Assembly: GCA_963776245.1 (NCBI GenBank)
Contig: CAVZLN010000003.1
Span: 64,001 to 128,000, forward strand
Source: Candidatus Eiseniibacteriota bacterium
GTDB taxonomy: Bacteria; Eisenbacteria; RBG-16-71-46
Length of the DNA stretch: 64,000 nt
Reading direction: 5' to 3'
The notes below the pieces were generated by a model, which was given only the letters and a program-made list of their open reading frames with translations, was not told where the DNA came from and made no database searches. Made by a program: the position numbers and the translations under genes. Of this stretch, positions 15,550 through 61,307 are shown one piece after another (position 1 is the stretch's first letter; each line of letters begins with the position of its first letter).

Positions 15550-15550
15550 T

Positions 15551-22554: not shown

Positions 22555-22693
22555 GTCAGGTCGCAGAAGGTTGGGCCGTGAGGGAGCGCGAACCCTACGG
22601 GGCGCACGTCCCGGGGTCAAGTCGCCTGCTCCCACGCGGATGCGTGGGAGCGCCGCGGCGGGTTCCGCGGCCGGCGGGCGCCGGTCGCGCGGG

Positions 22694-40671: not shown

Positions 40672-42759
40672 CTAGAAAGTGGCCCTGACTGGCTCGGTGT
40701 AGATCAGCCCGCGTTCGTAGCGCCCCATCCGCAGGCGGATCCGCGCCGCCAGTGAGTCCTCACCCGCCGCGACCGCGAGTTCCAGCGCCTTCGTGGCACT
40801 CGCGCGCGCCTGGTCGAAGCGCCCCGTCGCCGCTTCGGCCGCCGCGCGGGTGTCGAACGTGTCGGCCTCGCGTTCCGAGGTCAATTCGACGACGCGGTTC
40901 GCGAGCCGCAGCGCCTCCTCCCCGTCGCGCAGCCGGGCATCCGGATGCGTGGCCAGCAGCCAGGCCAGCGTGTTCATCAGCGCCGGCCAATCGGGCTTCA
41001 GCCGCAGGACCTGTCGGAAGCCCTCGATCGCTTCGGCATCGTGACCCCCGGTCTTCAGCAATGCCATGGCCAGGCCCAGCCGCGCACCGACGTGGGCCGG
41101 CGCGAGCGTCGCGGCACGTCGCATCCACTCCAGCGACTCGGCGGTGCGACCCTGCTCGGCGCGCAAGATCCCCAGCTCGACCAGGGACTCGACGTGGTCG
41201 GGCCTGAGGCCGAGCGCGCGCTCGTAGTGCGCCGCGGCGGAGTCGCCTTTCCCGGCCTTGTGAGCCGCCAGGCCGAGCTTGTAGGGAACGTCGGGATTCG
41301 AGGGCGCGAGCACCTCCGCGCGGCGGAGGTACGGGTTCGCCTCGTCCAACCGCCCCAGGAAGATGAGAGCCGTGCCGAGGTTGATCTGGCTGGAGACGAA
41401 GCCCGCGTCCGCGTCGAGCGCGCGACGGAACTCGCCCGCCGCCGCCTCGTAGGACGACTGACGTCCGTAGGCCATGCCCAGCCCGTTGTGCGCCGTCGGC
41501 TCACCCGGTGCGATCGCGACGGCATTGCGCCACAGCGTCACCGAGTCCGTCCATGGCCGCAGCGCGATGCGCGTCGCGCGCGCCTCGGCGACCGACACCA
41601 GAAGCGCGCACGCGGCGATGGCGAACCGTCGCGAGCGGGAAGGCCGCTCCCACAGGACGGTCAGCCCCCACCCCAGGGCCAGCACCGGCCCCAGCGCGGG
41701 CAGGTAGAAATAGCGGTCCCACGCGATGGTCCGGCTCCAGGCCAGGACGCCGAAGGTCGGAGCCAGCGCGAGGAGCATGAACAGCCATCCCACCCATGCC
41801 CCCGGCAGCCGCTTGCGGGCGGCGAACAGGCCTGCCGAGAGTGCGCCCGCGACCAGGCAACTGATGAGCACGGCCGGATTGGAGAGCGAGAATGGATCCG
41901 GCGGCGCGTACACCACCGACAGATTCGCGGGCCAGAGGGCCTTGCCGAGGTAGAACACCGGCAGGTAGCCGATGCGCAGGGCCCACCCGAGAGCCGAGAG
42001 CGGGACGCGCATGATCACGTCGGTGTTGGTCAGGGACAGCACGGAGATGACTCCGGAGACCCCCGCCACCAGGTAGTACGGCCACTTCTCGACGACCGTC
42101 CCGAAGCGCAGCCGCTTCAGGGGCCAGAGGTCGAGGAGCAGCAGCAGGAACGGCAGGCTCGTCACCGAGGGCTTCGACATCAGCGCGAGCACGAACAGTG
42201 CGACTGACGCGGCCAGCCACGCGTGGATCCGGCGGCGGGTGTACTCGACATACGCGATCATCGACGCCACTCCGAACAGGGCGGCGAGCAGCGTCTTGCG
42301 TTCCGAGATCCAGGCCACTGGTTCGACCGTCAGCGGGTGCAGCCCGAAGGCCAGCGCCGCAAGGCCGGCTGGGATTGCCGAGCCGAACAGGCGCCACAGA
42401 AAGAGGAAGATCAGCAGCGTGGTGACGAGATGCAGGGCGAGGCTCGTCCGGTGGAAGATGCGAGGCTGATCCGTGCGGCCGCCCCACGCATGGTCCAGCA
42501 TCAGCGAGGTCATCGACACGGGAAGGTAGTAGCCCGGGACCGTCGAGGGATGCAGGACTTCCGCGAAGAACCGGTGCGCGGAGTCCCAGCTCGGGTTCGT
42601 GACCAGACGGTTGTTGGCGACGAAGCTGACGTCGTCCGCCGAAACCGCCCGAGCCTTGAGCACAGGCCCATGCACCACGGCGATCGAGAGGCCGATCACG
42701 ACCGCTGCCCACCCGACGAGGTGCCAGGATCGGTCGCCGGGAACGCGCCCGCGGGTCAT
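40672..42759 (-). CDS. TMTC-like GT-C membrane protein with C-terminal TPRs
   Basis: DD in first loop, HPLTVEPVAWISERK, ALMSKP, DRYFYLP, multiple TM segments, TPR repeats. Confidence 0.82.
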   Translation of the reverse strand: MTRGRVPGDRSWHLVGWAAVVIGLSIAVVHGPVLKARAVSADDVSFVANNRLVTNPSWDSAHRFFAEVLHPSTVPGYYLPVSMTSLMLDHAWGGRTDQPRIFHRTSLALHLVTTLLIFLFLWRLFGSAIPAGLAALAFGLHPLTVEPVAWISERKTLLAALFGVASMIAYVEYTRRRIHAWLAASVALFVLALMSKPSVTSLPFLLLLLDLWPLKRLRFGTVVEKWPYYLVAGVSGVISVLSLTNTDVIMRVPLSALGWALRIGYLPVFYLGKALWPANLSVVYAPPDPFSLSNPAVLISCLVAGALSAGLFAARKRLPGAWVGWLFMLLALAPTFGVLAWSRTIAWDRYFYLPALGPVLALGWGLTVLWERPSRSRRFAIAACALLVSVAEARATRIALRPWTDSVTLWRNAVAIAPGEPTAHNGLGMAYGRQSSYEAAAGEFRRALDADAGFVSSQINLGTALIFLGRLDEANPYLRRAEVLAPSNPDVPYKLGLAAHKAGKGDSAAAHYERALGLRPDHVESLVELGILRAEQGRTAESLEWMRRAATLAPAHVGARLGLAMALLKTGGHDAEAIEGFRQVLRLKPDWPALMNTLAWLLATHPDARLRDGEEALRLANRVVELTSEREADTFDTRAAAEAATGRFDQARASATKALELAVAAGEDSLAARIRLRMGRYERGLIYTEPVRATF

Positions 42760-43541
42760 CGGTAAAGTGTCTTGACCCGCCCCCACGAGGGCAGCCGCGC
42801 CGGCACCGTCTCGCACGCCGGATTGCCGAACTGCCAGCTCACCTGCGACTCCAGTGAGTAGGGCGAGAGCACGACATCCCCGACGGCCGGCGGCCGGATG
42901 AGGCGCAGGCTCGTCACCACGAGCACGGTGCGCGTGCACCACCCCGCGCAGCCGGTGACACCCGTGGTGTTGACGTGCTTGATCGCGAGCGTGAACCCGT
43001 AGTACTCCGGCCCGGCTTCGACCGTCATGGGCTGGTCGGGCGCCACCTCAGCGGTGAGGACCCACTGCATGCGGGTGGAATCGGCGCCCACCGGCCACTG
43101 CGCCCGCTGCAGCACGAACGGGGTGGTGGTCCACGGGATGAGACACGCCGGGTTGGACGCGAAGGGCTCGAGGTAGAAGTTCGTCCCGACCTTCGCCCCC
43201 GACGGACGGCAGCCACTCGAGGACATCTGCCACCAGGGCTGGATCACGGGAAAGGTCGGTGGCGGTTCGCCGAAGGGATCGGCGACGCCGATGTACCCCA
43301 TGTGCAGGGCGACGATCGTGGCCTCGATCCCGAGCACCTGATCGAACGCCTCGGGCGCGGTGAACGACACCACCAGCACGTCGCTCCCGGTGTCAGTGTC
43401 GCCGGCGAAGTCGCGATTGCCGACTCCGCCGCCGGCCAGGCACTGGTCCCAGCGCAGGAAGACGTCGGCGCGCGCGGCGCCGGGCGGCGCCAACGCGCCG
43501 AGCAGGAGGACGAGAGCAGCGATCGAGCGGCGTGAGATCAT
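42756..43541 (-). CDS. Exported Cys-rich protein with C-terminal WGxxKxLYR motif
   Basis: AAGGAG RBS; signal peptide; ends TVPARLPSWGRVKTLYR. Confidence 0.8.
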   Translation of the reverse strand: MISRRSIAALVLLLGALAPPGAARADVFLRWDQCLAGGGVGNRDFAGDTDTGSDVLVVSFTAPEAFDQVLGIEATIVALHMGYIGVADPFGEPPPTFPVIQPWWQMSSSGCRPSGAKVGTNFYLEPFASNPACLIPWTTTPFVLQRAQWPVGADSTRMQWVLTAEVAPDQPMTVEAGPEYYGFTLAIKHVNTTGVTGCAGWCTRTVLVVTSLRLIRPPAVGDVVLSPYSLESQVSWQFGNPACETVPARLPSWGRVKTLYR

Positions 43542-43737
43542 GGGGTTGCTCTCCTTACGCATCTCCGGGTGCCCCGAGTGTAGCGCCTCGCGCGCGGCCG
43601 GTCAGCGGGCATTCCCGTCCGCGGGCTCCCGTCCAAGGGGACCCCGGCTGCGACCCTGCCGCAGCGGCGGTGGAGTCGCCCCCGGGCCCGAGCCGGCCTA
43701 GACGCAAGCGCCCCCGGCCATTAGGCTCGCGCTTCTC

Positions 43738-45260
43738 ATGATCGCACCGGCCGTCTCCCTGCGCGGCATCAGCCGCCGCTTCGGCCCCGTGTACGCCAAC
43801 CGCGACGTGTCGCTGGACCTCGCCCCGGGCGAGATCCACGCGCTGGTGGGCGAGAACGGGGCCGGCAAGACCACGCTCATGCGCGTGCTCTACGGGCTGC
43901 TCAAGCCCGACGCGGGCACCGTCCAGCTCGACGGGCGCGCGGTGCACATCCCGAGCCCCGCGCACGCCATGCGGCTCGGGCTCGGCATGGTCCACCAGCA
44001 CTTCATGCTGGTGGACACGCTCACGGTGGCGGAGAACGTCACGCTCGGGCGCGAGCCCGCGGGCGCGCTCGGGGTCTACCGGCGCCGCGACGCCGAGCGC
44101 GTGGTGGCCGAACTGGCCGAGCGCCACCGCCTGCCGGTCGATCCGCGCGCGCTGGTGCGCACGCTCCCGGTGGGGACCCAGCAGCGCGTCGAGATCCTCA
44201 AGGCGCTCCACCATGGCGCGCGCGTGCTCATCCTCGACGAGCCCACCGCGGTGCTCACCCCGCACGAGGTGGACGAGTTGTTCGGGGTGCTGCGCGCGCT
44301 CCAGGCCGGGGGCACCACGATCGTGCTCATCACCCACAAGCTGGGCGAGGTGAAGGCGCTGGCGCAGCGCGTCACGGTGATGCGCGGCGGGCGCGTGGTG
44401 GGCGGCGGCGAGGTGGCCGGCCTGTCGGTGGGCGAGATCGCCACGCTCATGGTGGGCAAGCCGATCGCCGAGCTGAAGTCGCGGGACCCGCGCGCGCCGG
44501 GCGAGGTGGCGCTCGCGGTCCGCGACCTCGAGGTGCGCGACCACCGCGGCCTCCCCGCGGTGCGCGGGGTGTCGTTCGACGTGCGCCGCGGCGAGATCGT
44601 GGGGCTCGCGGGGGTCGAGGGCAACGGCCAGCACGAACTCATCGAGTGCCTCGCCGGACTGCGGCCGGCCGCGCGCGGCGCCGTGTCCATCGCCGGGCAC
44701 GCGGTGAGCGGGCGCTCGGCGCGCGAGCACCGCGCCGCGGGGCTCGCCCACATCCCCAGCGACCGGCTGCGCCGCGGGCTGGTGCCCGAGATGACGCTGG
44801 CCGAGAACCTGGCGCTCGGGCTGCAGCGCGACCGCTCGCTCGGCCGCGGGCCGATGCTCGAGCGCGCCGGCCTCGAGCGCCGCGCGCGCCCGCTGCTCGA
44901 GGGCTACGACGTGCGCCCGGCCGATCCGTCCGCGCGCGCCGCCGCGCTCTCGGGCGGCAACCAGCAGAAGCTCATCGCCGCGCGCGAGCTGTCGCGCGCC
45001 GTGCCGGTGGTGATCGCGGCGCATCCCACCCGCGGGGTGGACCTCGGCGCGGTGGCGTTCCTGCACCGCCGCCTGCTCGACGAGCGCGACGCGGGGCGCG
45101 CGGTGCTGCTGGTGTCGAGCGAGCTATCCGAGATCCTGGCGCTCAGCGACCGCGTGCTGGTGATCTACGAGGGGCGCATCGCGCTCGAGACCCGGCCCGC
45201 CGACACCGACGAGCGCTCACTCGGCCTGTGCATGACCGGGCGCGCCGCGGAGTCGCGGGC

Positions 45261-45264
<4 letters not shown>
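43738..45264 (+). CDS. Nucleoside/sugar ABC transporter ATP-binding protein (NupA-like)
   Basis: GENGAGKTT, MVHQHF, LDEPT, LSGGNQQK; tandem ABC domains. Confidence 0.93.
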
Positions 45265-46339
<1,075 letters not shown>

Positions 46340-46340
<1 letters not shown>

Positions 46341-48099: not shown

Positions 48100-48135
48100 G
48101 CGCCGCCGGGCGCCGGGCCCCCCGGCGCCGCGCGC

Positions 48136-50032
48136 CTACCGGACCAGCTCGACCCTCTCGACGCGGTCCCCCGGGACGATCCGCCACACCACGTCCAGCC
48201 CCCGGGTGACGCGCGCGAAGATGGTGTACCGGCCGTCGAGGTGCGGCTGCGGCGAGTGGGTGATGAACCACTGGCTGCCGCCGGTGTCCTTGCCCGAGAG
48301 CGCCATGCCCACCATGCCCGGCTCGTAGCGCAGGTGGTTGTACTCGCAGCGGATGGTGTAGCCCGGGCCGCCGGCGCCGGTGCCGGTGGGATCGCCGTCC
48401 TGGATCACGAAGTTGGGCACCACGCGATGGATGACGAGGCCGTCGAAGTAGCCGCGTGCCGCGAGGGCGGCGAAGTTGCGCACGGTCTGCGGCGCCTCGG
48501 CGCCGAAGAACTCCCACTCGATGTCCCCGCGCGCGGTGTGCAGCACCGCGCCGTGCACCGCGGGCGGATCGGCGAAGTCGGCGGCGTACGTGGCGGGCTG
48601 CGCGTTGAAGGCGGGGTGCGCGCGCTCCAGGCTGTCGGCGAAGGCGCGGCCGGCGAGTGAGCGCAGCGCGTCGCGGATCGAGATGCGCGCGTCGGCGTCG
48701 GCGCGGCCCGCCCACGCGGCGTACGCCGCGGTGAGCGCGGGCACGCTGGCGCTGTCGGCGAGCGTGCCGAGCGCCTCGGCGGCGCCCGCCACCGCGAGCA
48801 CGCTGGTGTCGGCGAGCACGGCGCGCAGCGCGGGCGCCGCGCCGCGCGCGCCGAGTGCGCCGAGCGCCTCTTCGGCCGCCATGCGCTCGGCCAGCGGATG
48901 GGACCGGGCGAGGCGCCCGAGCAGCACCGGCGTCACCTCCGGCGCGGGCAGCAGGCCGAGGTTGCGGATCGCCCCGGCGCGCGCCACCGGGTCGGGGTCG
49001 TCGAGCATCCACGCCAGGCCGGCGGAAGACCGCGCGTGGTGGATCAGCAGCGCGCGGGCGCACGCCACGCGCGTGGCGGCGTCGCCGTCGCGGGTGTGCG
49101 CGTCCAGCGAGTCGAACACCGCGGCGCGCGCGGCGCCATCGGCGGCGGCGAGCCAGAAGCGCTCCCCGAGCGCGGTGGCGGCGGTCACGCGCAGGTACGG
49201 GATGCGGGTGCGCCAGCGCCCGCGCGAGCGCCGGCCCGCACGTCGCGCACGTGCTGTCGGCGATCTGCTGGAGCGCGCGCACCGCGTTCACCCGCACGCC
49301 CAGGTCGTCCTCGCTGTCGAGCGTCTCGAGCAGGTAGGCCACGGCATGCGGCGACTTCTGGCGCCCGAGCGTGCGGGCGGCGTAGGCGCGCGCCGTGGGA
49401 TCGGCGTCCTTCAGGTGGAGCGCCACCACCATCACCACGCGCGCGGGTGCGACCACCTTCTCGAGCGCGTAGAGCACCCGCCAGCGCACCCCGGGGTCGG
49501 GGTCGTCGTGACGCTCGAGCAGCGCGCCGACGGCGCTCGAGTCCGCGAGCCGCCACAGCGCCACGGCGGCTTCCCCGCGCAGCCGCGGCGAGTCCGCGGC
49601 GAGGCGCTTCACCACCGCGGGCGTGGCCGCCTGGTCGCCGAGCTTGCCGAGCGCCTCGAGCGCGACCACGGCGAGGTCCTCATCGGCGCCGGCCGCCAGC
49701 CGCTCGAGCCCCGGCCGCGCCGAGCGATGGCCGATCTGCCCGAGCGCGAACGCGGTCTCGGAGCGCACCTCGCGGCTCGAGTCGCCGAGCAGCGGCAGCA
49801 GCGCGGGCACCGTGGTGCTGTCCTGCAGCCGCCCCACCGCGAGCACGGCGCGCGCCCGCACCGCGGCCGACACGTGCCGGAGCGCGCCCTGGAGCGTGGC
49901 GTCCCAGACGCGGCGGTCCTCGGCCAGCGCGATGTCGCGGCGCACCGACCGCTCGTCGTCGGGGATCCGCGGCGCGCCCGCCGCGCGGCCCGCGCCGGCC
50001 GCGAGCGCCAGCACCATCACCAGCGCGCCCAC
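48136..50032 (-). CDS. HEAT-repeat / cyclophilin PPIase fusion, one frameshift near 49200
   Basis: HEAT-like repeats joined to HRVVPNFVIQ.GDP...GMALSGKDTGGSQWFIT...HLDGRYTIF; frame switch at CATCCCGTAC. Confidence 0.85.
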
Positions 50033-50057
50033 CGCCGCGCGCGCGCCGGCGCGCGCC

Positions 50058-53000
50058 TCAGGGCACCACGATGTCGTGGCGGATCGGCTTGCGGAGCTTG
50101 ACGATGCGCCCCTCGTAGGTGGCGCGGGCCGAGCCGTTGCTGGCCTCGAGATGGTAGAAGTAGATCCCGTTCGCAAGCTTGTCTCCCTCCGCGTCGCGGC
50201 CGTCCCAGACCAGCCGGTTGTAGCCGGGGGTCATCTGGGGCTGGAACTGACGGTACACCACGCGGCCGCTCACGGTGTACACGCGCACCAGCACGTCCGC
50301 CGGGCGCCCGCTCTCGAGGGTGAACGAGAAACTCGCGCCCCGCTCGTCGTCCAGCGGATTGGGGAACAGCAGGGCGTTGGAGATCCGCAGCTCGTTGCCG
50401 CTCACGGTGACGCTGAACGAGTGCCGGCCGCTCGACACGCCGTCGAGGAACAGCTCGACCACGTAGTCGCCGACCGCGAACGGATCGTGCGGCCACGACA
50501 GCACCCACTCGCGCCCCGACGGGTCGCTGGCCGCGGGCGTGGGGGTGACGGTCTGCGCGACGCCGTTCACCCGCACCACGAAGGAGTTCGCCGGATCGAG
50601 GACGGGCGCCGGCGAGGCCACGTCGAGGGTGAGCACCGCCGCGGGCGGCAGCTTGTCGCCGTCCGCCACCTGCGAGCCCGAGGACCGCAGCCGGGTCTCG
50701 AACGGGAGCACCACGTCGAACACGGAGGCCACGTTCTGGCGGTCGGTGCTCCGGAAGGTGTAGATGGTCGAGCGCGCGGTGAGCGTGTCGCGATAGGTGA
50801 CGCGGTAGCGCCGCCCGCCGAGCCCGCCGCGCGCGGTGTCGGGGAACGCGGGCGAGATGTCGTAGCGCGCCGGGTCGAGCGTGTCACGCACCCCCGCCAC
50901 CTGGCGTTCGACCTGGAGCTTCACCAGCGCCTGGTTCGAGATCAGATCGGCGACCACGCGCACGGTGTCGCCGGGCGTGTGCAGCTTCACCCCGACACCC
51001 GAGACCACCGCGAGGTCGTTGGCGGTCACGAACGACTGGGGCGTCGCGATCGAGATGCGCGTCGCCGGGTCGCCGAGCAGCTCGTAGGTGATGCCCACGT
51101 CGCGCTCGTAGGGGTTCCCGCTCACCTGGCGGTACGACTTCATGAGCGCCAGCGCGATGACGTCGCCGAGCACCGGGTGGGCGAACGGGTCGCCGGTCGC
51201 GCGCAGCGCGATCGAGGTGTCGGGCGGCACGCGCGAGAACAGCGCGCGCGCCAGCTCGAGGTTGATGTGGCTGGCCCCCGGCGAGCTCGACGGGACGATC
51301 TCGTAGCCGGTCGAGGCCCACGACGCGATGGCGCCCTTCGAGGGCACCACCACCAGTTCCTCGCCGATGCACGGGCCTTCTTCGGGGTTGTACTCCCAGC
51401 GGCGCGAGAAGTTGTTCGCGTGGCAGGAGAAGGCCGAGAACAGGAACGGCTTGCCGTCGTTCGCCAGCTCGGTCCAGTCGCCGCCGACGCCGCGGGTGTA
51501 GTACAGGTTCTCGTGCGTGAGCACGCCCTCGTTGGCGTGGCCCTGGTAGTTCCACCACAGCTTGCCCGCGCTCAGGCGGGTGCGCAGCTTGGGCCACACC
51601 GTCGCCCGGGTGTGGGTCTGGGTCGCGCCCCGGTCGGGCCGGCAGGTGTCGCCCAGGGAAGGCACCACCACGGCCTCTCCCGCGAGGTACTGCTGCAGGT
51701 CGAACACCTCGGCGCTGGATCGCGCGAGCCCGGCTTCGGTCAGGATGATGTCGCGGACGCGCTGATTGAGGGTGGAGAACACCGCCTCGTAGGCGTGCCG
51801 GCAGTAGGTCGGAGTGCTGGCGAGGTCGCCGAACCCGACGCCCGAGTACAGGTCGTCGGCGAGCAGCGTCATCTCGCTGCGCCAGGTCTGGTCCGGCGCC
51901 ACCACTTCGTAGGCCGCGAGCTTCTGCGCGACCGCCGCGGCCTCTGCCGCGCCGTTCACCGGCAGCCGCCCGACGAACACGTCGTGGAGCTTGGGCGCCC
52001 GCGTCGGATCGGTGCACGCCGGGTCCACGCACCAGCCGTACCACGCGTCGCTCGGCACGGTCTCGAGCGCGGTCTCGCCGGAGAATGTCACCGCGATCGG
52101 GCTCTGGATCATCATGGTGGGGAGCCACTCGTGGCTCGAGGTGCCGAACTTGTTCTGCGGGTCCTCGCCGCCCGCGTCCCCCATCAGCGTGACGTAGCGC
52201 GTGCCCCAGTTGGCGTAGGCGTACTTGATGAACCGCTTCACGGCATACGCCGAGGGACGCCCGCCGTTGAACTCGTCCTTGATGGACTCGTACGTGGCCA
52301 CCCGCACGTCGAGCCCCTGGGCGCGGCGCGCCTGCGCCAGCGGGGCGACCGAGCCCTCCCACGCGGCCGGCACCACCAGCAGGTAGTCGTGCGGGGTCGC
52401 CAGCTCGGTCAGCCGGCCGCGGGTCACCGCCGAGTACGCCTCGGGCGGCGCGAACCGCGGGCTGTCGAACACCACGTACTGGCGCGGCTGGCCGACGCCG
52501 GTGGAGTCCTGGAACTCGACGCTCCAGAGCCCCGCCGAGACGGTGATGCGCGACGGATCGATGTCGAGCCGCGTCGCGGCGGTGGAGTCGGTGACGTCCC
52601 ACACCTCGATCGCGTTGCTGCCGAAGCCGCTGGCCTTCACCTGATAGACGTCCGCGGCGCCGCCGCTGCCGCACGGCAGGTAGCCGCGGATGGGGCGGTA
52701 GGCGCGCCACAGCGTGACCTCGAAGTAATTGAGCGCGACCACCGCGCCCGGGTTGAGGCTCGGATCGGGCGGGCGATCGACGTTGCGGGCCCAGGCCGCG
52801 AGCGCGTTGGCGCCCTCGGTGAGCGCGGAGCCCGTCACGGTGCCCGACAGCGTGGCCGCCACCTTGCCGGTCCACCCCAGCGAATCCCCGACCGTGGTCC
52901 GCACCCCGAGGCCGTTGCGCACCGCGACCGAGACGTAGCGTCCGAGCGGCCGGCGGCCGATGAACTGGCCCTCGATGAGCACCCGCTGCGTGGTGTCGAG

Positions 53001-54290
53001 GTCGCTGGCGGTGATCGCGTAGGCGTCGGGGCGGTTGTAGTACGCCAGCACCGTGACCCAGTGGAACGGGTCCACCGTGGTGTCGGGCACGAACGCGAAG
53101 TAGTCGCGGTAGTCGGCCGAGTCCTGCTCGTAGTGGAGGGTCTGCGGGTAGGAGGCCAGCGGCGTGAGCCCGGCGGCGCCGCGCCATCCGGGCGACGGGC
53201 CGACCCGCAAGCCGGCCCGCGTGGTGAGCCGCGTCACGTAGACGTAGTCGGCATCGCCCCACATGCGCTGCCAGATCGAGGGCCGTGCGCGCTTCCCCCA
53301 GCTCTGCGCATACACGTAGATCAGGTCGCCGGAGTCGAACTTGCCGTTGCCGTTGCCGTCCTTCACCTCGCACGGCAGCTCGATCGTGACGTAGGGCGGC
53401 GTGGTGTTCTCCACGAACTCGTGGCGGTGCACGCTCACGTCGGCGATCGGCACATCCGCCGGGAAGCCCTGCAGGAACAGGTCGTCGTAGTTGAGGGCGA
53501 ACACCGAGGTGGAGTCCACCTTCACCCGCACCTCGGGCTGGTCCTCGTCGAACCCGAACGCTCCCGCCGCCGGCGCCGCGGCGAAGCTCGCGGAACGCGC
53601 CGGCGTGCGCCCCATGCGGAAGCGGCGGCCCTGCTCGGCGTTCAGGAGCGCGCCGTCGAGCGTGCCGTCCGGGCGCACGTCCTCCAGCAACGGCGCCCCG
53701 AGGGCGGTGGCCGCGCGGCCGCCGGTGAACGTGACACGCACCGTGATCGAGCGCCGGGCCCACAGCCGGCCGCTGGCCTCGTCGTAGCGGAACGGCGACA
53801 CGCGCACCGCCACCATGCGCTGGCGGCGCACCACGAACGGTTCGCCGACCTCGAGCGGGGAGCGCGGCCACGGTCCGTCGAGGATCGCGGGCACCTCCTC
53901 GAGCGTGGGCTGGGTGCCGAGCCCGTCCTCGTCGCGCTGCCATCCCGGTCGCCCGCCGGGCACCAGCGCGACGCCCTCGCGCACCTCCTCGTCGCCGGTG
54001 GCGATCACCACCGCGTCGGCGCGCGCGCCCGGCGGCAGCGCGATCAGCGTGCTGGCGGCGGGCAGCAGCGGCCGGCCGGGCTCGTCGTACCCCTCGAGGC
54101 CGTCCGCTTCGATGCGCGAGCGCCGGGCGAGCGAGTCGGGGACCAGCCGCCACCCGGCCAGTTCCACGCGGAAGGTGACCCCGCGGTCGTCCGACGCCAC
54201 CAGCCGCAGGGCCTCGGCGCGCGCGCACGGCGCGGCCAGGCTCAGGACGAGGGTGGCGGAGAGGGCGAGGGATCGGAGGCGAGCGCGCAT
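50058..54290 (-). CDS. C25 (gingipain/PorU-like) cysteine peptidase with propeptide and FlgD-Ig C-terminus
   Basis: Signal peptide; DEFNGG, LMGDA, VGRLPV, NYQGH (His), FSCH (Cys), LLGDPA; C-term WDGRDAEGDKLANGIYFY. Confidence 0.85.
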   Translation of the reverse strand: MRARLRSLALSATLVLSLAAPCARAEALRLVASDDRGVTFRVELAGWRLVPDSLARRSRIEADGLEGYDEPGRPLLPAASTLIALPPGARADAVVIATGDEEVREGVALVPGGRPGWQRDEDGLGTQPTLEEVPAILDGPWPRSPLEVGEPFVVRRQRMVAVRVSPFRYDEASGRLWARRSITVRVTFTGGRAATALGAPLLEDVRPDGTLDGALLNAEQGRRFRMGRTPARSASFAAAPAAGAFGFDEDQPEVRVKVDSTSVFALNYDDLFLQGFPADVPIADVSVHRHEFVENTTPPYVTIELPCEVKDGNGNGKFDSGDLIYVYAQSWGKRARPSIWQRMWGDADYVYVTRLTTRAGLRVGPSPGWRGAAGLTPLASYPQTLHYEQDSADYRDYFAFVPDTTVDPFHWVTVLAYYNRPDAYAITASDLDTTQRVLIEGQFIGRRPLGRYVSVAVRNGLGVRTTVGDSLGWTGKVAATLSGTVTGSALTEGANALAAWARNVDRPPDPSLNPGAVVALNYFEVTLWRAYRPIRGYLPCGSGGAADVYQVKASGFGSNAIEVWDVTDSTAATRLDIDPSRITVSAGLWSVEFQDSTGVGQPRQYVVFDSPRFAPPEAYSAVTRGRLTELATPHDYLLVVPAAWEGSVAPLAQARRAQGLDVRVATYESIKDEFNGGRPSAYAVKRFIKYAYANWGTRYVTLMGDAGGEDPQNKFGTSSHEWLPTMMIQSPIAVTFSGETALETVPSDAWYGWCVDPACTDPTRAPKLHDVFVGRLPVNGAAEAAAVAQKLAAYEVVAPDQTWRSEMTLLADDLYSGVGFGDLASTPTYCRHAYEAVFSTLNQRVRDIILTEAGLARSSAEVFDLQQYLAGEAVVVPSLGDTCRPDRGATQTHTRATVWPKLRTRLSAGKLWWNYQGHANEGVLTHENLYYTRGVGGDWTELANDGKPFLFSAFSCHANNFSRRWEYNPEEGPCIGEELVVVPSKGAIASWASTGYEIVPSSSPGASHINLELARALFSRVPPDTSIALRATGDPFAHPVLGDVIALALMKSYRQVSGNPYERDVGITYELLGDPATRISIATPQSFVTANDLAVVSGVGVKLHTPGDTVRVVADLISNQALVKLQVERQVAGVRDTLDPARYDISPAFPDTARGGLGGRRYRVTYRDTLTARSTIYTFRSTDRQNVASVFDVVLPFETRLRSSGSQVADGDKLPPAAVLTLDVASPAPVLDPANSFVVRVNGVAQTVTPTPAASDPSGREWVLSWPHDPFAVGDYVVELFLDGVSSGRHSFSVTVSGNELRISNALLFPNPLDDERGASFSFTLESGRPADVLVRVYTVSGRVVYRQFQPQMTPGYNRLVWDGRDAEGDKLANGIYFYHLEASNGSARATYEGRIVKLRKPIRHDIVVP

Positions 54291-54300
54291 GAAGGTCCGC

Positions 54301-54330
54301 AGTCTAGGGAGGCGTGAGGAACCCGGTCAA
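54301..54330 (-). promoter_or_regulatory. Sigma70-type promoter of C25 peptidase gene (near-leaderless)
   Basis: TTGACC-N18-TAGACT, 10 nt upstream of ATG. Confidence 0.7.
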
Positions 54331-54477
54331 GGACAGCGGCCGGGCGGAGTGTCGTGGCGCGGCGCGTGCCCGCGCCGGGCTCGTCGCGCGAGCCGTGCGC
54401 GCGCCGTCGCATGCCGCCTCGGGCGCTCTGCTAGAATGCCGCGCTTCGAGTCCCTCGCGCCCTTCGGAGGCTTCGGC

Positions 54478-55851
54478 ATGCGGCCCGTCGTGATCTTCCT
54501 CCTGCCGGCACTGGCGTTGGCCGCGTCACTCGCGGCCACCGGGGGCCCCGGCGCGGCGCCGCGGTCGGACGCACTCCGCGGCGGGCCGATGCCGGACAGC
54601 GTGCTGGCCTGGATCGGTTCCCGCCGCGAGGTGTCGCTCACCGCATTCCGTGAAGCCTGGAGGCTGGTCGCTCCTCCATCGCGACCTGACTCTCTGACCC
54701 CGCAGGGGGCCCGCCGGTTCCTCGAACTGCTGATCGACCGGGAGGCGCTGGCCGAATGGGCGCTCCGGGAGCCACCGGAGTGGACCGCAGAGGACAGCGC
54801 CGGGATGCAGGGCCTGCGCGACCAGCTCACCCTGCGGGCCACCCTCGACTCCACACTGGCCACCACGCGCGCCCGGCTGGGGGCGGCGGGGGACACCACC
54901 CGGGACCCCCAGGCCGTGGGCGTGGCGGCGCGGGAGAGCCTGCTGGCGCGACTCGACCCGCGGTGGGACGAGGAGGGGCTCGAACGGCTGGCGGCGGCGT
55001 TCGGCGACCTGCCCCGGCCCACCGCCGATTCGAGCGTGGGGGCCCAGCTCCGCATGGCCGCGGCGCTGCCGCGCTGCTCCCCCGCCGACAGCGCGCGGGT
55101 GCTGGTGACCACCACCGCGGGCCCGTACCGCACCGGAGAGCTGCTGGCGTGGTGGGCGCGGCTCGACCCGCTGGTGCGCCCGCGCATCGCGACCGGCGCG
55201 CAGGTGCGCGACCTGGCGGCGAACGCGCTGTTCGAGCGGGCGCTGCGGAGCGCCGCCACGCGCGAGGGCCTCGAGCGGCGCCCCGACATCGCCGCCGCGC
55301 TGGCGCGCCAGCGCGAGCTCATCGCCGTGCGGCACCTGGTGGCGCGCGAGGTGGTCGGGCGCATCGCGCTGGATTCGGCGACGGTGCGCCGCCACTACGA
55401 CCGGCACACGGCGGACTTCGGGCTGCCGCTGCGCGTGCGCGTCATGCGGCTGGTGCTCGACGACCGCCGCGGCGCCACCGAGATGGCGCTGCAACTGCGC
55501 TCCGAAGCCAGCGCCGAGAGCCTGCTGGCGCGCGCCGCGCGCCGCCGGGTGCGCTACGACGAGGAACTGACCGCCGCGCGCGACTCGGCGCTGTGCGCGC
55601 GCGCGCTGCGCGCCGGGACCCGGCGCCGTGCTGGGGCCCGACGAGACTCCGTCGGGATGGCAGGTGGTGCGGGTGCGCGCGGTGCTGCCGGCGCGCCGGC
55701 TGATCCTTCGAGGAGGCGCGCGCACAGGTGGAGGACGACTGGTACACGCGCGAGAGCGAGCGCCTGATGGCCGGACTGCTCGAGCGCTGCCGGCGCGCGA
55801 TGGCGGTCCGCGTCAACCCGCGGGCGCTGCGAGTCTTGACCTCGCCCGTGA
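54478..55851 (+). CDS. SurA/PrsA-like exported chaperone, frameshifted near 55620 and 55710; end uncertain
   Basis: GGAGG RBS, signal peptide, FLELLIDRE.LA, GP.ETPSGWQVVRV in shifted frame. Confidence 0.6.
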
Positions 55852-55911
55852 CGCAACCTTTCGAGCGCTCCACGCGCTCCGTGGGACGGCACACCCTCGA
55901 GCGGGCGTTTC

Positions 55912-55941
55912 TTGACGCCCTTCGCGGGCGCTACGTAGACT
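55912..55941 (+). promoter_or_regulatory. Sigma70-type promoter
   Basis: TTGACG-N18-TAGACT upstream of 55991. Confidence 0.6.
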
Positions 55942-55990
55942 CGTACGCTCATCCACCTTCCCATCCCCCTGGTTCGGCCCCGGAGATCCC

Positions 55991-57781
55991 ATGCACCCTC
56001 GCCTCCGCCTCATCCCCGTCCTCGGACTCGCTCTCGGCGTCGTGGTCTCCGCCAGCGGGCGGGCGGCCCCTCCGGGCGGGATCGCCCCGCGGACCGAGAG
56101 CGACCCGCAGGTCATCTCGAGCGCCGCGCCCCGGGAGGGAGCGCCGCTGGCCGACACCGTGACGCTGGCCCGCGTGGGCGATCGGATCACGCGCGTGCGC
56201 GATTTCACGTTCTACTGGTTCAACGCCTGGCCGCCGGATCTCCCCGAGCCGGACAGCGCGGGCCGCGCCGAGTTCCTCGCCAGCATCGTGAGCCGTGACC
56301 TGATGGCCCTCGAGGCCGCGCGGCTGGGTATCCCGGTCACCTTCGAGGACCGGCTGGCGATCCGCGAATATCGGCAGCGCATGCTCGGCAACATCCTCTA
56401 CCGCCGCGTGGTGGTGGATTCGGTGCGGGTCTCGCGAGGAGGACGTCAAGCGGCACTGGGAGTCCTTCCGCTACGAGGTGCGCGCCAGCCACATCCTGTT
56501 CCGCGACGAGGAAACTGCGCAGCAGGTGCGCGCCGACCTGCTGGCGCACAGCTGACGTGGGAAGAGGCGGTCACCCGGTACTCGCTCGACGACTCGACCC
56601 GCGCCGACGCGGGAAGCCTCGGCTGGCTCACCTACGGCGCGCGTCGGCACGAGCATCGCGATCGACATCTTCCCGCTCGACGCCGGGGACGCTTTCGCCG
56701 GTGTTCCGGGACGACGATGGCTTCCACATCGCGCGCGTGGACGGAGCGCCGGCCGGCACGTGCTCCCGACTTCAACTCGACCCGCGCGCTGGTCCGCATG
56801 TACCTCGAGCAGCACCAGACCGCCGTGCGTCTCGACGCGCTGCACGACGTGATGCGGCGGCGCATCCATCTCACCTACGACGACGCCAACTGCGCGTGGG
56901 CGAGGCGCCAGTTCGTCAGAGTCTTCGAGGTCACCCGCGGCGCGCTCGGCACCCAACTGGCGTTCAACGACATCGTCCCGGAGTTCCTGCCGGAGGACAC
57001 CTCCCGGGTGCTCGCGCGCTTCGATGGCGGCACGCTCTCGCTCGGGCAGTTCGTGACGAAGTACTCGGAGGTGCAGACCGACGGCGCGGCCGGATGTCTC
57101 GTCGCCGGGGCTGTTCCGGCGCGCCGTCGACAGCTTCATCCTCGAGCCCGCGATGGCCGAGGAGGCGCTGCTGCGCGGCCTCGAGAACGATCCGGTCTCG
57201 GTGAAGCACCTGCGCATCAAGCACGAGGAACTCGCGGTCGGCATCTCTACCAGGATTCGGTCTCGCGCAGGTCTCGCTGACGCCGAAGGAGCGGCGGAAG
57301 TTCTACGAGAAGAACCTGGACGGCCTACATCACGTTCCCATCGGTGCGCTACGCCTGTTCGGGCTGCAAGGAACAGGCGGCTCGCCGACACGCTCGCGGC
57401 GGCGCTGAGGGCCGGCGAGTCGGCCGAGCGCGTCATCGCCGACTCCCTCTACGGCTGGTCGGTGGGCTCGGTGCAGCGCGGCGCCAGAGCGAGCGCGGGG
57501 CGTGTACAAGCTGTCTGTTCGAGACCCTGCGACCGGGGCAGGTCGAGGTGCAGGGGCCGAACAAGGACGGGGGCTGGGCGGTGGTGCAGTCGCTCAGTTA
57601 CGACCCGGGCCGCCAGCTCAGCTACGAGGAGGCCGCCAACTACGTGGACGAGAACCTGCAGAAGATCCGCGGCGAGGAGCAGCTGGCGGCGTTCTCCAAG
57701 CGGCTGATGAAGCGCTATCCGACCTGGAGCCACCCCGAGCTCGTGATGCGCATCCGACTGGTGGACCCGGAGCAATTCTAG
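55991..57781 (+). CDS. Parvulin-type peptidyl-prolyl isomerase (SurA/PrsA-like), multiple frameshifts
   Basis: Pieces across frames: EVRASHILF, RYSLD...AGSLGW, SPVFRDDDGFHI, LRPGQV..GP..GWAVV. Confidence 0.72.
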
Positions 57782-57833
57782 GCGCCGCCGGAGCGCCCCG
57801 CTCGCGGCGCCGGCGCCGACCGCGCGGCCCGCG

Positions 57834-58580
57834 CTAGCGCGTGATCGGCCGCGGAGACCACGGCTTTACCCGGGCCCCGCTCCACGCGGCGCAGACGCCA
57901 TCCACCGGCGCGTGGAGTCCGACGAAGCGCTCGCCGCGGGTCACGGTGGGCTCGTAGGCCAGGCTCCACGCCAGCGTCCCGGTGACCCACTCGACGCACA
58001 GCGGCTGCGCACACGCCGCGTCCCGCGGTGGCGGACGGTGCACCAGCACCGTCGCGAGCACGTACGTCTGGCCCGCCCGCACCGGCGTCGCCGCGGTGCT
58101 CGCCACCGCGAAGATCATCCGCAGCCGTGCCCCGCCCGGGACCAGGTCGCTCTTCTGGAGCCCGATCCCGGGGACCGGGAACGGGGTCGCCGCGCCCGCC
58201 ATGGAGTCCGGCGCGAAACGCGCCACGAATTGCCTGAGGTCGCCACCGCGCTGGGTCGCGCGCCAGTAGTCCGCGAGCGAGTCGGGCGCGGTCGGGCGGA
58301 ATCGCAGCTCGGCTTCGAACGCGTAGAGCGTGGGGGAATCCTGGCCCGGCACCATGCACAGGTAGAGCGTGTCGGTGGCGGCGGTGTCGCCGCACGCGCC
58401 CAGCAGTGAAGCGGTGGCGCGCGGTTGTCCCGGGGGCGCGTTCCACGACAGCGTCACGCGCGCGCCAGTGGTGTCGGGTCCCGCGCTGGCGCGTGCCACG
58501 GCGGCGCCCGCGATCAACATGGCGAAGACGAGGGCGGCCGCCTTAGCGGCCCGAACGGGCATGCAATAGGGTTCCGTCAT
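57834..58580 (-). CDS. Exported hypothetical protein, distant relative of upstream Cys-rich paralogs, without WG tail
   Basis: ATGA coupling; signal peptide; LSWNAP...C...DTLYLC; CAQPLC. Confidence 0.7.
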   Translation of the reverse strand: MTEPYCMPVRAAKAAALVFAMLIAGAAVARASAGPDTTGARVTLSWNAPPGQPRATASLLGACGDTAATDTLYLCMVPGQDSPTLYAFEAELRFRPTAPDSLADYWRATQRGGDLRQFVARFAPDSMAGAATPFPVPGIGLQKSDLVPGGARLRMIFAVASTAATPVRAGQTYVLATVLVHRPPPRDAACAQPLCVEWVTGTLAWSLAYEPTVTRGERFVGLHAPVDGVCAAWSGARVKPWSPRPITR

Positions 58581-59356
58581 CGGTAGAGCACCTTGATCCG
58601 TCCCCAACTGGAGGGCCGGGCCGGGACCGTGAGACAGTCCGCGCCCACACCGCCCTGCCAGGTCGCGAAATTCTCGTGGGCGCCGCCGTCCCCCGAGATC
58701 AGCACGTCGGCGGCGCCGGGCAGGCGCCGCAGCCACATCGAATTCAGCACCAGGCATGCTGGAACCTCGCAATCCGCGCAGTTCCCCATCCGAGCGATGC
58801 CGAGATCGAATTGTATCGCATTGTAGGGAATTCCGGCTTCGAACGCACGCGCTTGCGTCGAGGCCACGGTCGCGACCGCACGGATGCGCAGCATGGAGGC
58901 GAGTCCGCGCGGCTGCCCCGGGATGGCATCCACGATGATGGCGCTCCCCAGACCGTTCCATGCATCCGCGCATGCTCCCGGCGCCGGGAAGGACGGCACC
59001 AGGCCGCCTTGGTTGCACCCGCCGGCGCCCAGTTGCCAGAAGGCCGGCAACGGCGACGCCGCGCTCTGCAGATCGAGCACGAATTCGGCGCCGATCACGC
59101 TGTCGATCGGCGCCGCGAGCTGGAACGAGCACACCAGGTAGCGGTGCGCCGATATGTCCGCGCATCCCTGCACCGCGTCCGCCGTGCCGCCCTCGACGCG
59201 GCATCCGTCCCAGGCCAGCATCAGGCGGTCGGCGGCGCGCGCACTCGCGCAGGTGCCGCACCCGACCGCCAGCGCCAGCACCCATGTCACTCCGACACCA
59301 CGAGGCACCCACGCGCGAGCGGGGTGCCTCGTGGATGCCGAATGCGGCTTCGACAC
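58577..59356 (-). CDS. Exported Cys-rich protein with C-terminal WGxxKxLYR motif
   Basis: TAGTG coupling to upstream gene (alternative start 59290); LAWDGC, WQLGAGGC, CADC..PAC; ends SSWGRIKVLYR. Confidence 0.8.
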   Translation of the reverse strand: MSKPHSASTRHPARAWVPRGVGVTWVLALAVGCGTCASARAADRLMLAWDGCRVEGGTADAVQGCADISAHRYLVCSFQLAAPIDSVIGAEFVLDLQSAASPLPAFWQLGAGGCNQGGLVPSFPAPGACADAWNGLGSAIIVDAIPGQPRGLASMLRIRAVATVASTQARAFEAGIPYNAIQFDLGIARMGNCADCEVPACLVLNSMWLRRLPGAADVLISGDGGAHENFATWQGGVGADCLTVPARPSSWGRIKVLYR

Positions 59357-60141
59357 TAGCGGTAGAGGCTCTTGATCTGACCCCAGGTCCGGCTGCGCAC
59401 CGGAACCGTGGCGCAATCCGCCACGGTCTGGCCCGAGAGGAGTGCACTACCGGCGGACGCCGGGAGGTTGTACACCGGGTCGCCCCCAGGACTACCGGAC
59501 GGCTGGTTGAGCTTGACCCACTTGAGCATCATGCACGCCTGCGCGTCGCAGCCCGCGCAGGAACCCGTGCCGGTGCTCTTGGTCTTGTTCATCACCAGCG
59601 AGTAGAGGAAGATCTCGTCGCCCACGTTCGGGGGCGGGGTGAGCAGCGCGAGGTCGTAATCCACGGCCGAGACGAAGCGCATGCGGACGCGGTTGCCGTC
59701 GATCTCGCCATTCGGGTCGCCGATCGCGGGATCCGGGCCGATCTGGTAGGAGTTGACACCCAGCACCGTGCTGACGCCGCCGAAGTAGTCGATGCACGAG
59801 TACAGGCCGCCGTTGTACCCCACGGCCAGCGCGTTGGAGGCGCGGCAGGTCCCGCCCAACTTCCACCATTCGGGCACCAGGGTCGCGAACGCGAACTCGA
59901 CCATGCTTTCCTCGGCCACCAGCGTGGTGAGCGAACCCGCAGCATTGATCACCACGGACGCGACGGCGGTGAAGGCGGCGCCGCCGTTGGACGTGCAGGT
60001 CCAGGTCGCGAGTTGGGCGCCACCGCAATCGGTGGAGGCCAGCTTCAAGCCCGGAACGTCCACCGCCTGCGCCGGCGACACCATCGAGATGCTCGCCAGC
60101 ATGCTACCGAAGACCACCAACACGAGAAGCAGTCGCTTCAT
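59356..60141 (-). CDS. Exported Cys-rich protein with C-terminal WGxxKxLYR motif
   Basis: GGAGG RBS; signal peptide; ends RTWGQIKSLYR. Confidence 0.88.
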   Translation of the reverse strand: MKRLLLVLVVFGSMLASISMVSPAQAVDVPGLKLASTDCGGAQLATWTCTSNGGAAFTAVASVVINAAGSLTTLVAEESMVEFAFATLVPEWWKLGGTCRASNALAVGYNGGLYSCIDYFGGVSTVLGVNSYQIGPDPAIGDPNGEIDGNRVRMRFVSAVDYDLALLTPPPNVGDEIFLYSLVMNKTKSTGTGSCAGCDAQACMMLKWVKLNQPSGSPGGDPVYNLPASAGSALLSGQTVADCATVPVRSRTWGQIKSLYR

Positions 60142-60339
60142 GATTCGGACCTCCCTTTCCCTAGAGTGACGGCATTCGGCACGAGCGCACCCGGCCGGAG
60201 AGATGGATGCTCACGCCGAGGTTGACCGCGAGGCTCTTGCCCGGTCCATGGATCGCGGCTGCATCCTAGCGTGTCATCGGCCGGGCGCAAGCGATAATCC
60301 AGTCGCCCGTGGGGGCGGCGCCAGCGGCCACAAGCGAAG

Positions 60340-60368
60340 CGGGGGGGCCGGCGACCGCCGCCCCCCCG
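60340..60368 (-). terminator. Hairpin downstream of 60400..61167
   Basis: G7/C7 stem followed on minus strand by CTTCGCTT. Confidence 0.55.
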
Positions 60369-60399
60369 AACGCGTTCGTTGCAGAGACTTGACAGCGAC

Positions 60400-61167
60400 C
60401 TACCGGTACAGCGACTTGATCTGGCCCCAGCTGCTGCGGGTCGCAGGAGTGGACAGCGGGCAAGTCGGATCGATCGAACCGTTGAAGCACGTGTAACCGA
60501 CGTCGTTCACGTCGGGAAGGCCCATCACCGGGTCACCACCAGGAGTGCCCGACGGCTGGTTGAGCTTGACGTTCCTGAGCACCATCGCGACCTTGGCGTT
60601 GCAGCCCGCGCAGGCACCAACGCCGGCGCTCTTGGTCTTGTTCATCACCAGCGAGTACAGGAAGATCTCGTCGCCCATGGCCGGCGGCGGCGTGAGGAGC
60701 GCGAGGTCGTAATCCACGGCCGAGACGAAGCGCATACGGACACGCTTGTCGTCGATCGGGCCGTTCGGGTCGCCGACTCCGGGATCCGGGCCGATCTGGT
60801 ACGAGTTGACTCCCAGCACCGTGCTGACACCGCCGAAGTAGTCGATGCACGAGTACAGGCCACCGTTATACCCCACGGCCAGCGCGTTGGCGGCGCGGCA
60901 GCCACCGCCCAGCTTCCACCAGTCGGGCACCGGAACCTCGAACCCGATCTCGACCACACTCTCCTCGGCCACCAGCGTCACGACGCCAGCCGGAACGGTC
61001 GCCGAAGCGATCACCGTGAAGGCAGCGCCGCCGTTGGACGTGCAGGTCCAACTGAGCGTCGAGGCACCGCCGCAATCACCGACGGAAAGGTGGAGCCGCG
61101 ACTGAGCGTTGGCAATCGCCGCCGTCATCACGAGAAGGGCGCCACAGAAAAGGAAAACCTTCTTCAT
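60400..61167 (-). CDS. Exported Cys-rich protein with C-terminal WGxxKxLYR motif; close paralog of 59356..60141
   Basis: GGAGG RBS; MKKVFLFCG signal peptide; ends SSWGQIKSLYR. Confidence 0.88.
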   Translation of the reverse strand: MKKVFLFCGALLVMTAAIANAQSRLHLSVGDCGGASTLSWTCTSNGGAAFTVIASATVPAGVVTLVAEESVVEIGFEVPVPDWWKLGGGCRAANALAVGYNGGLYSCIDYFGGVSTVLGVNSYQIGPDPGVGDPNGPIDDKRVRMRFVSAVDYDLALLTPPPAMGDEIFLYSLVMNKTKSAGVGACAGCNAKVAMVLRNVKLNQPSGTPGGDPVMGLPDVNDVGYTCFNGSIDPTCPLSTPATRSSWGQIKSLYR

Positions 61168-61307
61168 TGGAACCTCCAGAATACGCAAGACTAGACAGGG
61201 GGACGATGCGCTACCGAGTTGCTCGATCGGTCTAGTCTCGATATCACCACCTTTCGATTCGATTCCTACATTCGAAGCAAGCGAGAAGCGGCTCTAGAAA
61301 TCCCCGA

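Follow-up and report, generated by a model that had tools for sequence, protein, structure and literature searches.

How is an exported protein told where in the cell envelope it belongs? Several described systems place the information at the C-terminus. The type A C-terminal domain (CTD) of type IX secretion systems (T9SS; TIGR04183 and PF18962, with FlgD_ig, PF13860, as a variant) is an immunoglobulin (Ig)-like sandwich of 70–90 residues found at the extreme C-terminus of Sec-exported, functionally unrelated proteins. Short CTDs of Prevotella intermedia, 40–55 aa long and built of three strands, were modelled to bind PorV like the long ones, and the last 22 residues of HBP35 were reported to be sufficient in work cited in the same article (PMC11969387). 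Together these cases provide a published precedent for CTDs that shrink. In the tripartite signals (PEP-CTERM with exosortase, LPXTG with sortase, GlyGly-CTERM with rhombosortase, and MYXO-CTERM with myxosortase), many exported proteins with no relation to one another bear a short signature strictly at the C-terminus, accompanied by a hydrophobic transmembrane segment and a trailing basic cluster. Free C-termini are also read by TPR and PDZ domains, as exemplified by the recognition of PTS1 by Pex5 and of outer-membrane protein (OMP) tails by DegS, and a C-terminal amphipathic helix anchors the periplasmic enzyme PBP5 of E. coli to the membrane. Here we analyze a tail of about 17 residues that closes four exported proteins encoded in a 64,000-nucleotide stretch of Candidatus Eiseniibacteriota bacterium DNA (assembly GCA_963776245.1, contig CAVZLN010000003.1, positions 64,001–128,000; the whole stretch is referred to below as the window). 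We propose, with a probability of roughly 0.4, that the tail is a previously undescribed C-terminal sorting or docking tag that follows a T9SS-like route. That it is a receptor-read sorting or docking tag, by whatever route, we consider probable from the comparison of sequences.

The tail shares features with each of the systems above. Like the T9SS CTD, it forms the very end of Sec-exported proteins whose functions are unrelated, its host genomes encode SprA, PorV, and PorU, and it alternates with the CTD on homologous bodies; in this genome, both endings close with a basic residue, hydrophobic residues, and a carboxy-terminal Arg. Unlike the CTD (70–90 residues, or 40–55 in the short forms), the tail spans about 17 residues, lacks the Ig-like sandwich and motifs B, D, and E, shows no similarity to the CTD by hidden Markov model (HMM), is predicted to form a linker and a helix, and is carried by smaller, Cys-rich cargo. 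With the tripartite signals it shares the short terminal signature on many unrelated exported proteins, and with PEP-CTERM in particular it shares the junction at which it is joined to homologous bodies as well as its occurrence on "choice-of-anchor" domains; unlike them, it contains neither a hydrophobic transmembrane segment nor a trailing basic cluster, and its last ten positions read [ST]-W-G-x-[IVL]-K-x-L-Y-R. It differs from the outer-membrane beta-signal in ending with Arg (22 of 22) instead of an aromatic residue, and in that its bodies are soluble (NHL, phosphoesterase, putative cohesin-like sandwich) and not beta-barrels. As in PTS1 and the OMP tails read by DegS, a few invariant residues must end the chain, although compartment and sequences differ. 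As in PBP5-type anchors, a terminal amphipathic cationic segment follows a Sec-exported soluble domain, but here it is considerably shorter, and its sequence is far better conserved across unrelated proteins. No model in Pfam-A or NCBIfam matched the tails alone, even at E up to 10, full-text literature searches turned up no description of the motif, and a term search of the MYXO-CTERM preprint (10.1101/2023.06.07.544157) did not turn it up.

A conserved tail on unrelated exported bodies

A preliminary description of the window, made from the DNA alone, reported four open reading frames (ORFs) that end in [TV]P[AV]xxx[ST]WGx[IV]KxLYR followed by a stop codon, each with a Cys just before the motif. 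The ORF list confirms all four, on the minus strand, with the Cys 1–4 residues upstream of the tail in every case, and the N-terminus of each protein resembles a signal peptide when judged by eye, in agreement with the export first ascribed to them. None of the four matched a Pfam or NCBIfam family. These genes, together with a related gene that lacks the tail, are:

42756–43562, minus strand: tagged gene 1; 268 aa from ATG; signal peptide; Cys-rich, putatively cohesin-like family; ends TVPARLPSWGRVKTLYR; 17-residue tail at 42759–42809, stop codon at 42756–42758
58577–59308, minus strand (ORF to 59416): tagged gene 2; family of gene 1; ends TVPARPSSWGRIKVLYR; tail at 58580–58630
59356–60141, minus strand: tagged gene 3; 261 aa; family of gene 1; structure predicted below; ends TVPVRSRTWGQIKSLYR; tail at 59359–59409
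60400–61167, minus strand (ORF to 61188): tagged gene 4; 255 aa from MKKVF; ends STPATRSSWGQIKSLYR; tail at 60403–60453
57834–58541, minus strand: fifth, divergent paralog of the family; signal peptide; no WG tail; ends ...RVKPWSPRPITR

The products of genes 3 and 4 are 65% identical. The start of gene 2 is uncertain: the ORF list places it at a TTG at 59416, and a GTG near 59308, which precedes the signal peptide, is the likelier start. The divergent paralog is related to the tagged family at a probability of 92.9% (E 3.6e-7) when aligned by hhalign with the tagged-family alignment, and its existence demonstrates that body and tail are separable. The tail had been described as more conserved than the bodies, and this is the case: in a 34-sequence alignment of the family, mean column identity is 32%, and the Trp, Gly, Lys, Leu, and Tyr of the tail are invariant. 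The Gly codons of the four window tails are all different (GGG, GGA, GGT, and GGC); thus, conservation acts at the level of the protein and is not that of a DNA repeat.

How widely does the tail occur in the host genome (3.56 Mb in 9 contigs, about 72% G+C, 92% complete)? Counts by regular expression and with a tail HMM found the motif strictly at the C-terminus and on many bodies. The core pattern WG.[IVLM]K.[LIVMF][YFW] has 22 matches among the 38,392 stop-to-stop ORFs of 40 aa or more read in all six frames; Arg and a stop codon follow in all 22, and there are no internal matches. Residue frequencies predict 0.05 matches anywhere and 4.5e-5 at a C-terminus followed by Arg, so the motif is not due to chance. 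A degenerate DNA pattern recovered the identical 22 sites, and the reversed-pattern control gave zero matches here and in every other genome searched. Relaxing one position added three ORFs and one that ends ...IHYRD, and the tail HMM added three variants with Phe replacing Trp or with four extra residues (...ITWGAVKSRYANSR, ...LTFGQLKARYRK, and ...MTFGALKARYR), which indicate how much drift the tag allows; with these relaxed searches the genome contains about 26–29 tagged ORFs. Signal-peptide-like N-termini were recognized by eye on 23 of 26 tagged ORFs, the other three being fragments of 42–87 codons that cannot be judged, and no tail was found on a protein that clearly lacks a signal peptide.

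Comparison of 119 tails from other genomes and 24 from this one gives the consensus P-[VT]-P-[VTA]-[ER]-x-x-[ST]-W-G-x-[IVL]-K-[AST]-[LMI]-[YF]-R-stop. The search that supplied the out-of-genome tails preset the Trp, Gly, Lys, Tyr, Arg, and partly the [ST] position. It left the P-[VT]-P-[VTA]-[ER] flank free, and this flank is nevertheless conserved. Including the Cys, which is present at −18 to −20 in about 60% of the compared tails, the full tag reads (Cys)-x0-2-P-[VT]-P-[VTA]-[ER]-x-x-[ST]-W-G-x-[IVL]-K-x-[LMI]-[YF]-R-COOH.

Is the tail merely the end of one protein family? The four bodies of the window had been suspected to be related, and they are indeed paralogs; the tail, however, is not confined to them. 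After removal of the tails, BLASTP at 1e-3 sorts the 22 strict tagged ORFs into one six-member family, consisting of the four window proteins and two on contig C2 of the same genome, and 16 singletons with unrelated bodies. Pfam domains were identified in three of the 17 tagged bodies outside the window (a phosphoesterase, an NHL propeller, and CBM96). NCBIfam identified choice-of-anchor E on C3:1196114-1196929 (125.5 bits, cut-off 23.8), choice-of-anchor P on C9:18146-19252 (45.2 bits, cut-off 27), DNRLRE, and, below threshold, a resemblance to ScyF, a PEP-CTERM protein. Among the tagged ORFs on metagenome contigs, 10 of 69 contain Pfam domains (four NHL, two lamin-tail LTD, two beta-helix, one CHRD, and one CBM_4_9), and no Pfam family was found in the remaining 59.

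All close relatives searched (41 of 41) contain the tag pattern, as do 183 of 206 genomes of Eisenbacteria, with controls of zero throughout, and 142 of 151 sampled genomes of a second GTDB phylum whose records are titled Latescibacteria, Krumholzibacteriota, or "Fibrobacteraceae", again with a control of zero. Up to 61 tagged proteins are encoded per genome; a family that we designate f18 is tag-poor, with matches in 21 of its 41 genomes and 0–4 in each. With one genome taken for each prokaryotic species, a scan yielded at least 125 loci; among the matches listed, 119 of 125 end a reading frame that is open for 35 codons or more. The 80 record titles listed mostly name Eisenbacteria or an unclassified "bacterium", and the rest name Latescibacteria, Krumholzibacteriota, Zixibacteria, and "Fibrobacteraceae" metagenome-assembled genomes; a few are likely due to chance or mis-binning. 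The Eisenbacteria tallies for the tag, and those for SprA and PorU-like proteins given below, include one unpublished genome (G026), on which no claim depends. We also note that genomes G206, G208, and G210, titled Latescibacteria, Krumholzibacteriota, and "Fibrobacteraceae", respectively, belong to a single GTDB phylum in the collection searched, which makes record titles an unreliable guide to phylum.

Two further observations concern the surroundings of the tagged genes. Contig C2 (26 kb) carries a diverged syntenic copy of the window from 57.8 to 66 kb, with genes for RuvX, YceG, and a PP-loop protein, the paralog that lacks the tail, and two genes that have it; either a duplication or the binning of a second strain with this genome could account for the copy. 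At 61244–61944 (minus strand) there are two overlapping ORF pieces, probably from a gene whose frame is broken; over 37 aa, the upstream piece shares 51% identity with the N-terminal part of the tagged protein C8:210642-212084.

Position and predicted structure of the tail

Which endings do homologs carry in place of the tail? For a tagged protein of 176 aa (C9:227108-227638), the search gave 129 relatives at E up to 1e-3, and the endings of 120 of these were classified by regular expression and by eye: 72 carry the tail, 17 carry near-variants, 11 carry PEP-CTERM (VPEP, a hydrophobic helix, and then an Arg-rich end), five carry a FlgD-Ig CTD, and 15 are truncated or end otherwise. In the alignment of this family, an invariant GxFxYxR marks the point right after which all types of ending diverge. 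Similarly, the tagged protein C9:269198-270001 is 44–52% identical to three tandem repeats of a protein of the same genome that ends in the CTD. An iterated HMM identified 85 CTD-bearing ORFs in the genome and none of them carries the tail, so tail and CTD are mutually exclusive. The early suggestion that the tail sits where other cargo have an Ig-like CTD therefore holds, and it does so for homologous bodies. The tag is strictly terminal, it is independent of the body family, and it occupies the position of known sorting signals. As for the machinery of the alternative signal, this genome encodes one exosortase over the cut-off and one weak match, and only one PEP-CTERM-like ORF was found by regular expression.

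With AlphaFold2 (AF2) and the 34-sequence alignment, the window protein encoded at 59356–60141 is predicted to fold into a confident sandwich at residues 30–225, where the mean predicted local distance difference test (pLDDT) score of 10-residue blocks is mostly 86–96; the tail region, residues 228–261, scores 46–51 and includes a short helix at 253–259. In the model of the unrelated 176-aa family (55 sequences), the body scores 90–98 and the tail 56–61, with a helix at 167–174. These models suggest that the tail of each family consists of a linker and a short terminal element and makes no packing contact with the body; in neither of the two is it predicted to be an integral part of the fold. 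A transmembrane helix is absent from the tail, as first described. The short amphipathic helix that had also been put forward is not supported beyond a low-confidence prediction of a terminal helix in both models. The body of the window family is suggestive of a cohesin-like fold of the nine-stranded jelly-roll sandwich type. The top 14 rows of a wide VIA-align comparison are cohesins (Z 9.0–7.5, root-mean-square deviation 3.0–4.6, 118–140 residues aligned), which by the calibration of that tool is suggestive only, since a widespread arrangement may be enough to produce a Z of around 8; the Foldseek comparison (best E 1.8e-3; TM 0.26–0.35) is not significant, and no sequence similarity between the window family and cohesins was found. 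No fold match at E up to 0.001 was found for the model of the 176-aa family.

These results bear on three explanations that do without a sorting receptor. The first, that the tail is the integral last element of one fold or an artefact of chance or annotation, could draw on the paralogy of the four window proteins. We regard it as refuted by the strictly terminal counts, the chance estimate, the 16 unrelated bodies, the zero counts of the reversed controls, the untagged paralog, and the unpacked tails of the two AF2 models.

Second, could the tail be a passive anchor, that is, a cationic amphipathic segment that keeps small exported proteins at the envelope by contact with the membrane interface or lipopolysaccharide and has no protein reader? 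The last ten residues, with Trp and Tyr among them, are charged at about +2.5 net, the hydrophobic moment exceeds the genome background at 100, 120, and 180 degrees, and a terminal helix appears in the AF2 models; moreover, no co-occurring or neighbouring gene was found in the searches described below, as expected if no machinery is involved. Still, the invariant Trp, Gly, Lys, Tyr, and final Arg, the fixed spacing to P-[VT]-P-[VTA]-[ER], and the exact end at Arg and stop codon in two phyla exceed the usual demands of lipid binding. Ten residues would also make a very short anchor, and in homologs the tail replaces signals that are processed by enzymes. We therefore consider passive anchoring unlikely.

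Third, the tail could be a degron or maturation signal for a periplasmic C-terminal-processing or HtrA-type protease, so that it would govern turnover and not location. PDZ proteases read free C-termini, the tail is strictly C-terminal, exposed, and unstructured, and one HtrA-like gene (Trypsin_2 plus PDZ) lies within 6 kb of a tagged gene. That gene is a single, non-recurrent neighbour, however, and one would hardly look for a degron in place of PEP-CTERM or the T9SS CTD on the same bodies, or on choice-of-anchor domains, which makes this explanation improbable.

T9SS components and candidate readers

Does the T9SS read the tail? Components for translocation and attachment are present: SprA was detected with 480 bits, together with its neighbours; PorV is represented by matches below the curated cut-off, by PF19572 over its cut-off, and by at least three barrel paralogs; and there are two PorU-like peptidases, below the NCBIfam cut-off. 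About 80 CTD cargo proteins are encoded in the genome. Two of the components are located in the window:

50058–54290, minus strand: second PorU-like C25 peptidase, with a FlgD-Ig CTD; T9SS context, 4–6 kb from tagged genes
18786–19754, minus strand: PorV-like outer-membrane barrel; T9SS context

A link between the tail and the T9SS is plausible. Outside Eisenbacteria, SprA is present in five of five tag-bearing genomes tested. In addition, a conserved T-R-[RK]-hydrophobic x4-R-COOH closes the FlgD-Ig CTDs encoded here, and 46 of 77 CTD proteins end in Arg, versus 24% of all called genes. We rejected the reading of the tail as a truncated CTD for lack of profile similarity; CTD-like domains without their end were not seen with an HMM that did not model the last strand.

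Several observations weigh against the T9SS route. Within the phylum, SprA was found in 200 of 206 genomes, among them 39 of 41 in tag-poor f18 and the tagless genomes G061, G093, and G095, and it is also present in five of five tagless genomes of the second phylum; because it is near-universal, its co-occurrence with the tag is compatible with a T9SS route but of little information, and we rejected SprA as a discriminating partner. PorU-like homologs, too, occur in tag-poor genomes. The PorU-like paralog of the window was rejected as a discriminating partner, given its homologs in tag-poor f18 and the mere weak matches in a tag-bearing family, f7. With SprA, PorU-like proteins, and PorV near-universal in both phyla, tag-poor genomes included, the use of the T9SS by the tail, one of two options in the preliminary description, has gained no support from co-occurrence. 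A search with two models found no GldM in this genome, which is 92% complete. The tails show no similarity to the CTD ends of the genome (best E 0.16–0.21 by HMM; hhalign probability 0.2%), and AF2 predicts, at low confidence, a helix at the tail versus the strands at T9SS CTD ends. The bodies alternate with PEP-CTERM as well as with the CTD, so alternation is not specific to the T9SS. Nor was a conserved neighbour gene identified by BLAST clustering of 189 neighbours and Pfam analysis of 145 in this genome, or among 2,477 ORFs from 125 metagenome loci; the neighbourhoods of tagged genes contain mostly housekeeping genes, and only the periplasm-facing GT-C enzymes described below recur in them. 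Finally, tagged proteins have a median length of 239 aa (by crude gene calls) and 2.6 Cys per 100 aa, versus 666 aa and 0.8 Cys per 100 aa for the CTD proteins of the genome, and cargo that differs so in kind could have a different destination.

Both T9SS genes of the window have neighbours worth recording. The PorV-like barrel belongs to a minus-strand cluster (11537–24679) that also encodes a CTD protein, an NHL protein, and a CarboxypepD_reg, Plug, and OMP barrel protein (19774–22542), which may be a second cargo-and-shuttle module. The PorU-like gene is flanked on one side by a HEAT and cyclophilin gene (48136–49188) and on the other by ORFs 54436–55767 and 55991–57781, which are SurA/PpiC-like by eye and had no Pfam match, and the second of which is apparently frameshifted.

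Alternatively, the tail might be read by a different envelope receptor outside the T9SS, for example a TPR or PDZ reader of free C-termini, and some families might couple to O-glycosylation by TMTC-like enzymes that combine a GT-C membrane domain with TPRs. One such gene adjoins a tagged gene in the window:

40672–42942, minus strand: TMTC-like, with GT-C membrane and periplasmic TPR domains; 57 bp downstream of tagged gene 1

All that speaks for a tag in general holds equally for a receptor of this kind, and the strictly free terminus of the tail suits TPR and PDZ readers. The TMTC-like family contains an invariant DD..N loop, the paralog matches PMT_2 at the cut-off, and some source names read "O-mannosyl-transferase". 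Only two paralogs are encoded in this genome (40672–42942 and C3:672125-673999, minus strand), each adjoining a tagged gene, and a tagged gene lies directly upstream in four of 12 ortholog loci, with this genome's own counted. More broadly, the 29 PMT_2-like (GT-C) matches in the 3.56-Mb genome form an unusually large set of periplasm-facing glycosyltransferases; six of the 29 lie within 5 kb of a tag versus 1.7 expected (p ~0.005, about 3.5-fold), with no such excess near CTD genes; one of the 29 entered the list after its adjacency had been seen.

Can these enzymes be the reader? Tag-poor f18 has the TMTC-like family in every genome (41 of 41), whereas the family was not found in several tag-rich, near-complete genomes (tag-rich examples are G003 and G105) or in families f14 (0 of 3) and f17 (0 of 5), and we therefore rejected it as a universal reader. 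The only two GT-C homologs in 375 kb of metagenome flanks lie close to a tag, at 148 bp and 384 bp, but their density is about that of the genome as a whole (1 per 123 kb); a general enrichment of GT-C genes near tags is thus modest in this genome and was not reproduced in the metagenome flanks. Clustering of the metagenome loci revealed no other recurrent neighbour. Neither neighbour clustering nor the presence of SprA, PorU-like, and TMTC-like proteins across genomes singled out a reader of the tail. On balance, a receptor outside the T9SS is a possible but doubtful explanation, and the protein encoded at 40672–42942 is possibly a family-specific partner of the tagged family rather than a general reader. 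Another GT-C gene lies 1.7 kb from tagged genes (62874–65036, minus strand); it encodes a PMT_2/PMT GT-C membrane domain apparently fused to a C-terminal PP-loop ATPase-like part (...VVAYSGGVDSS..., by eye).

Proposed mechanism and meaning

What would a tag of this kind do? That the tail is a sorting signal we infer by comparison. We propose that the cargo, Sec-exported and mostly small and Cys-rich, would be exported by its signal peptide and would fold and oxidize in the periplasm. A flexible, Pro-rich linker would then present the short cationic terminal segment, with the free carboxy-terminus forming part of what an envelope receptor reads, and this receptor would direct the tagged protein to its final place. 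In the route that we favour, a T9SS-like pathway with the SprA translocon, a PorV-type shuttle, and a PorU-type sortase would serve this purpose, and the tail would be a minimal alternative to the 70–90-residue Ig-like CTD.

Tentatively, then, the tail may be the address label of an undescribed route. It may represent a minimal third class of T9SS signal, with about 17 residues and a free ...LYR-COOH, or belong to a separate envelope pathway of candidate phyla related to the Fibrobacteres–Chlorobi–Bacteroidetes (FCB) group, with a reader of its own; in either form, it would label tens of proteins in a genome, across two phyla or more. From LPXTG, PEP-CTERM, and the T9SS CTD, the path led in each case to a machine for secretion or anchoring, and also to practical predictors of surface proteomes. 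Likewise, a model of the tag would annotate a large block of "hypothetical" exported proteins and provide a handle on the reader. If the T9SS is the reader, then the tag would define the minimal information that the T9SS needs. If it is not, the tag would belong to a hitherto unrecognized envelope-sorting pathway in widespread soil and sediment bacteria.

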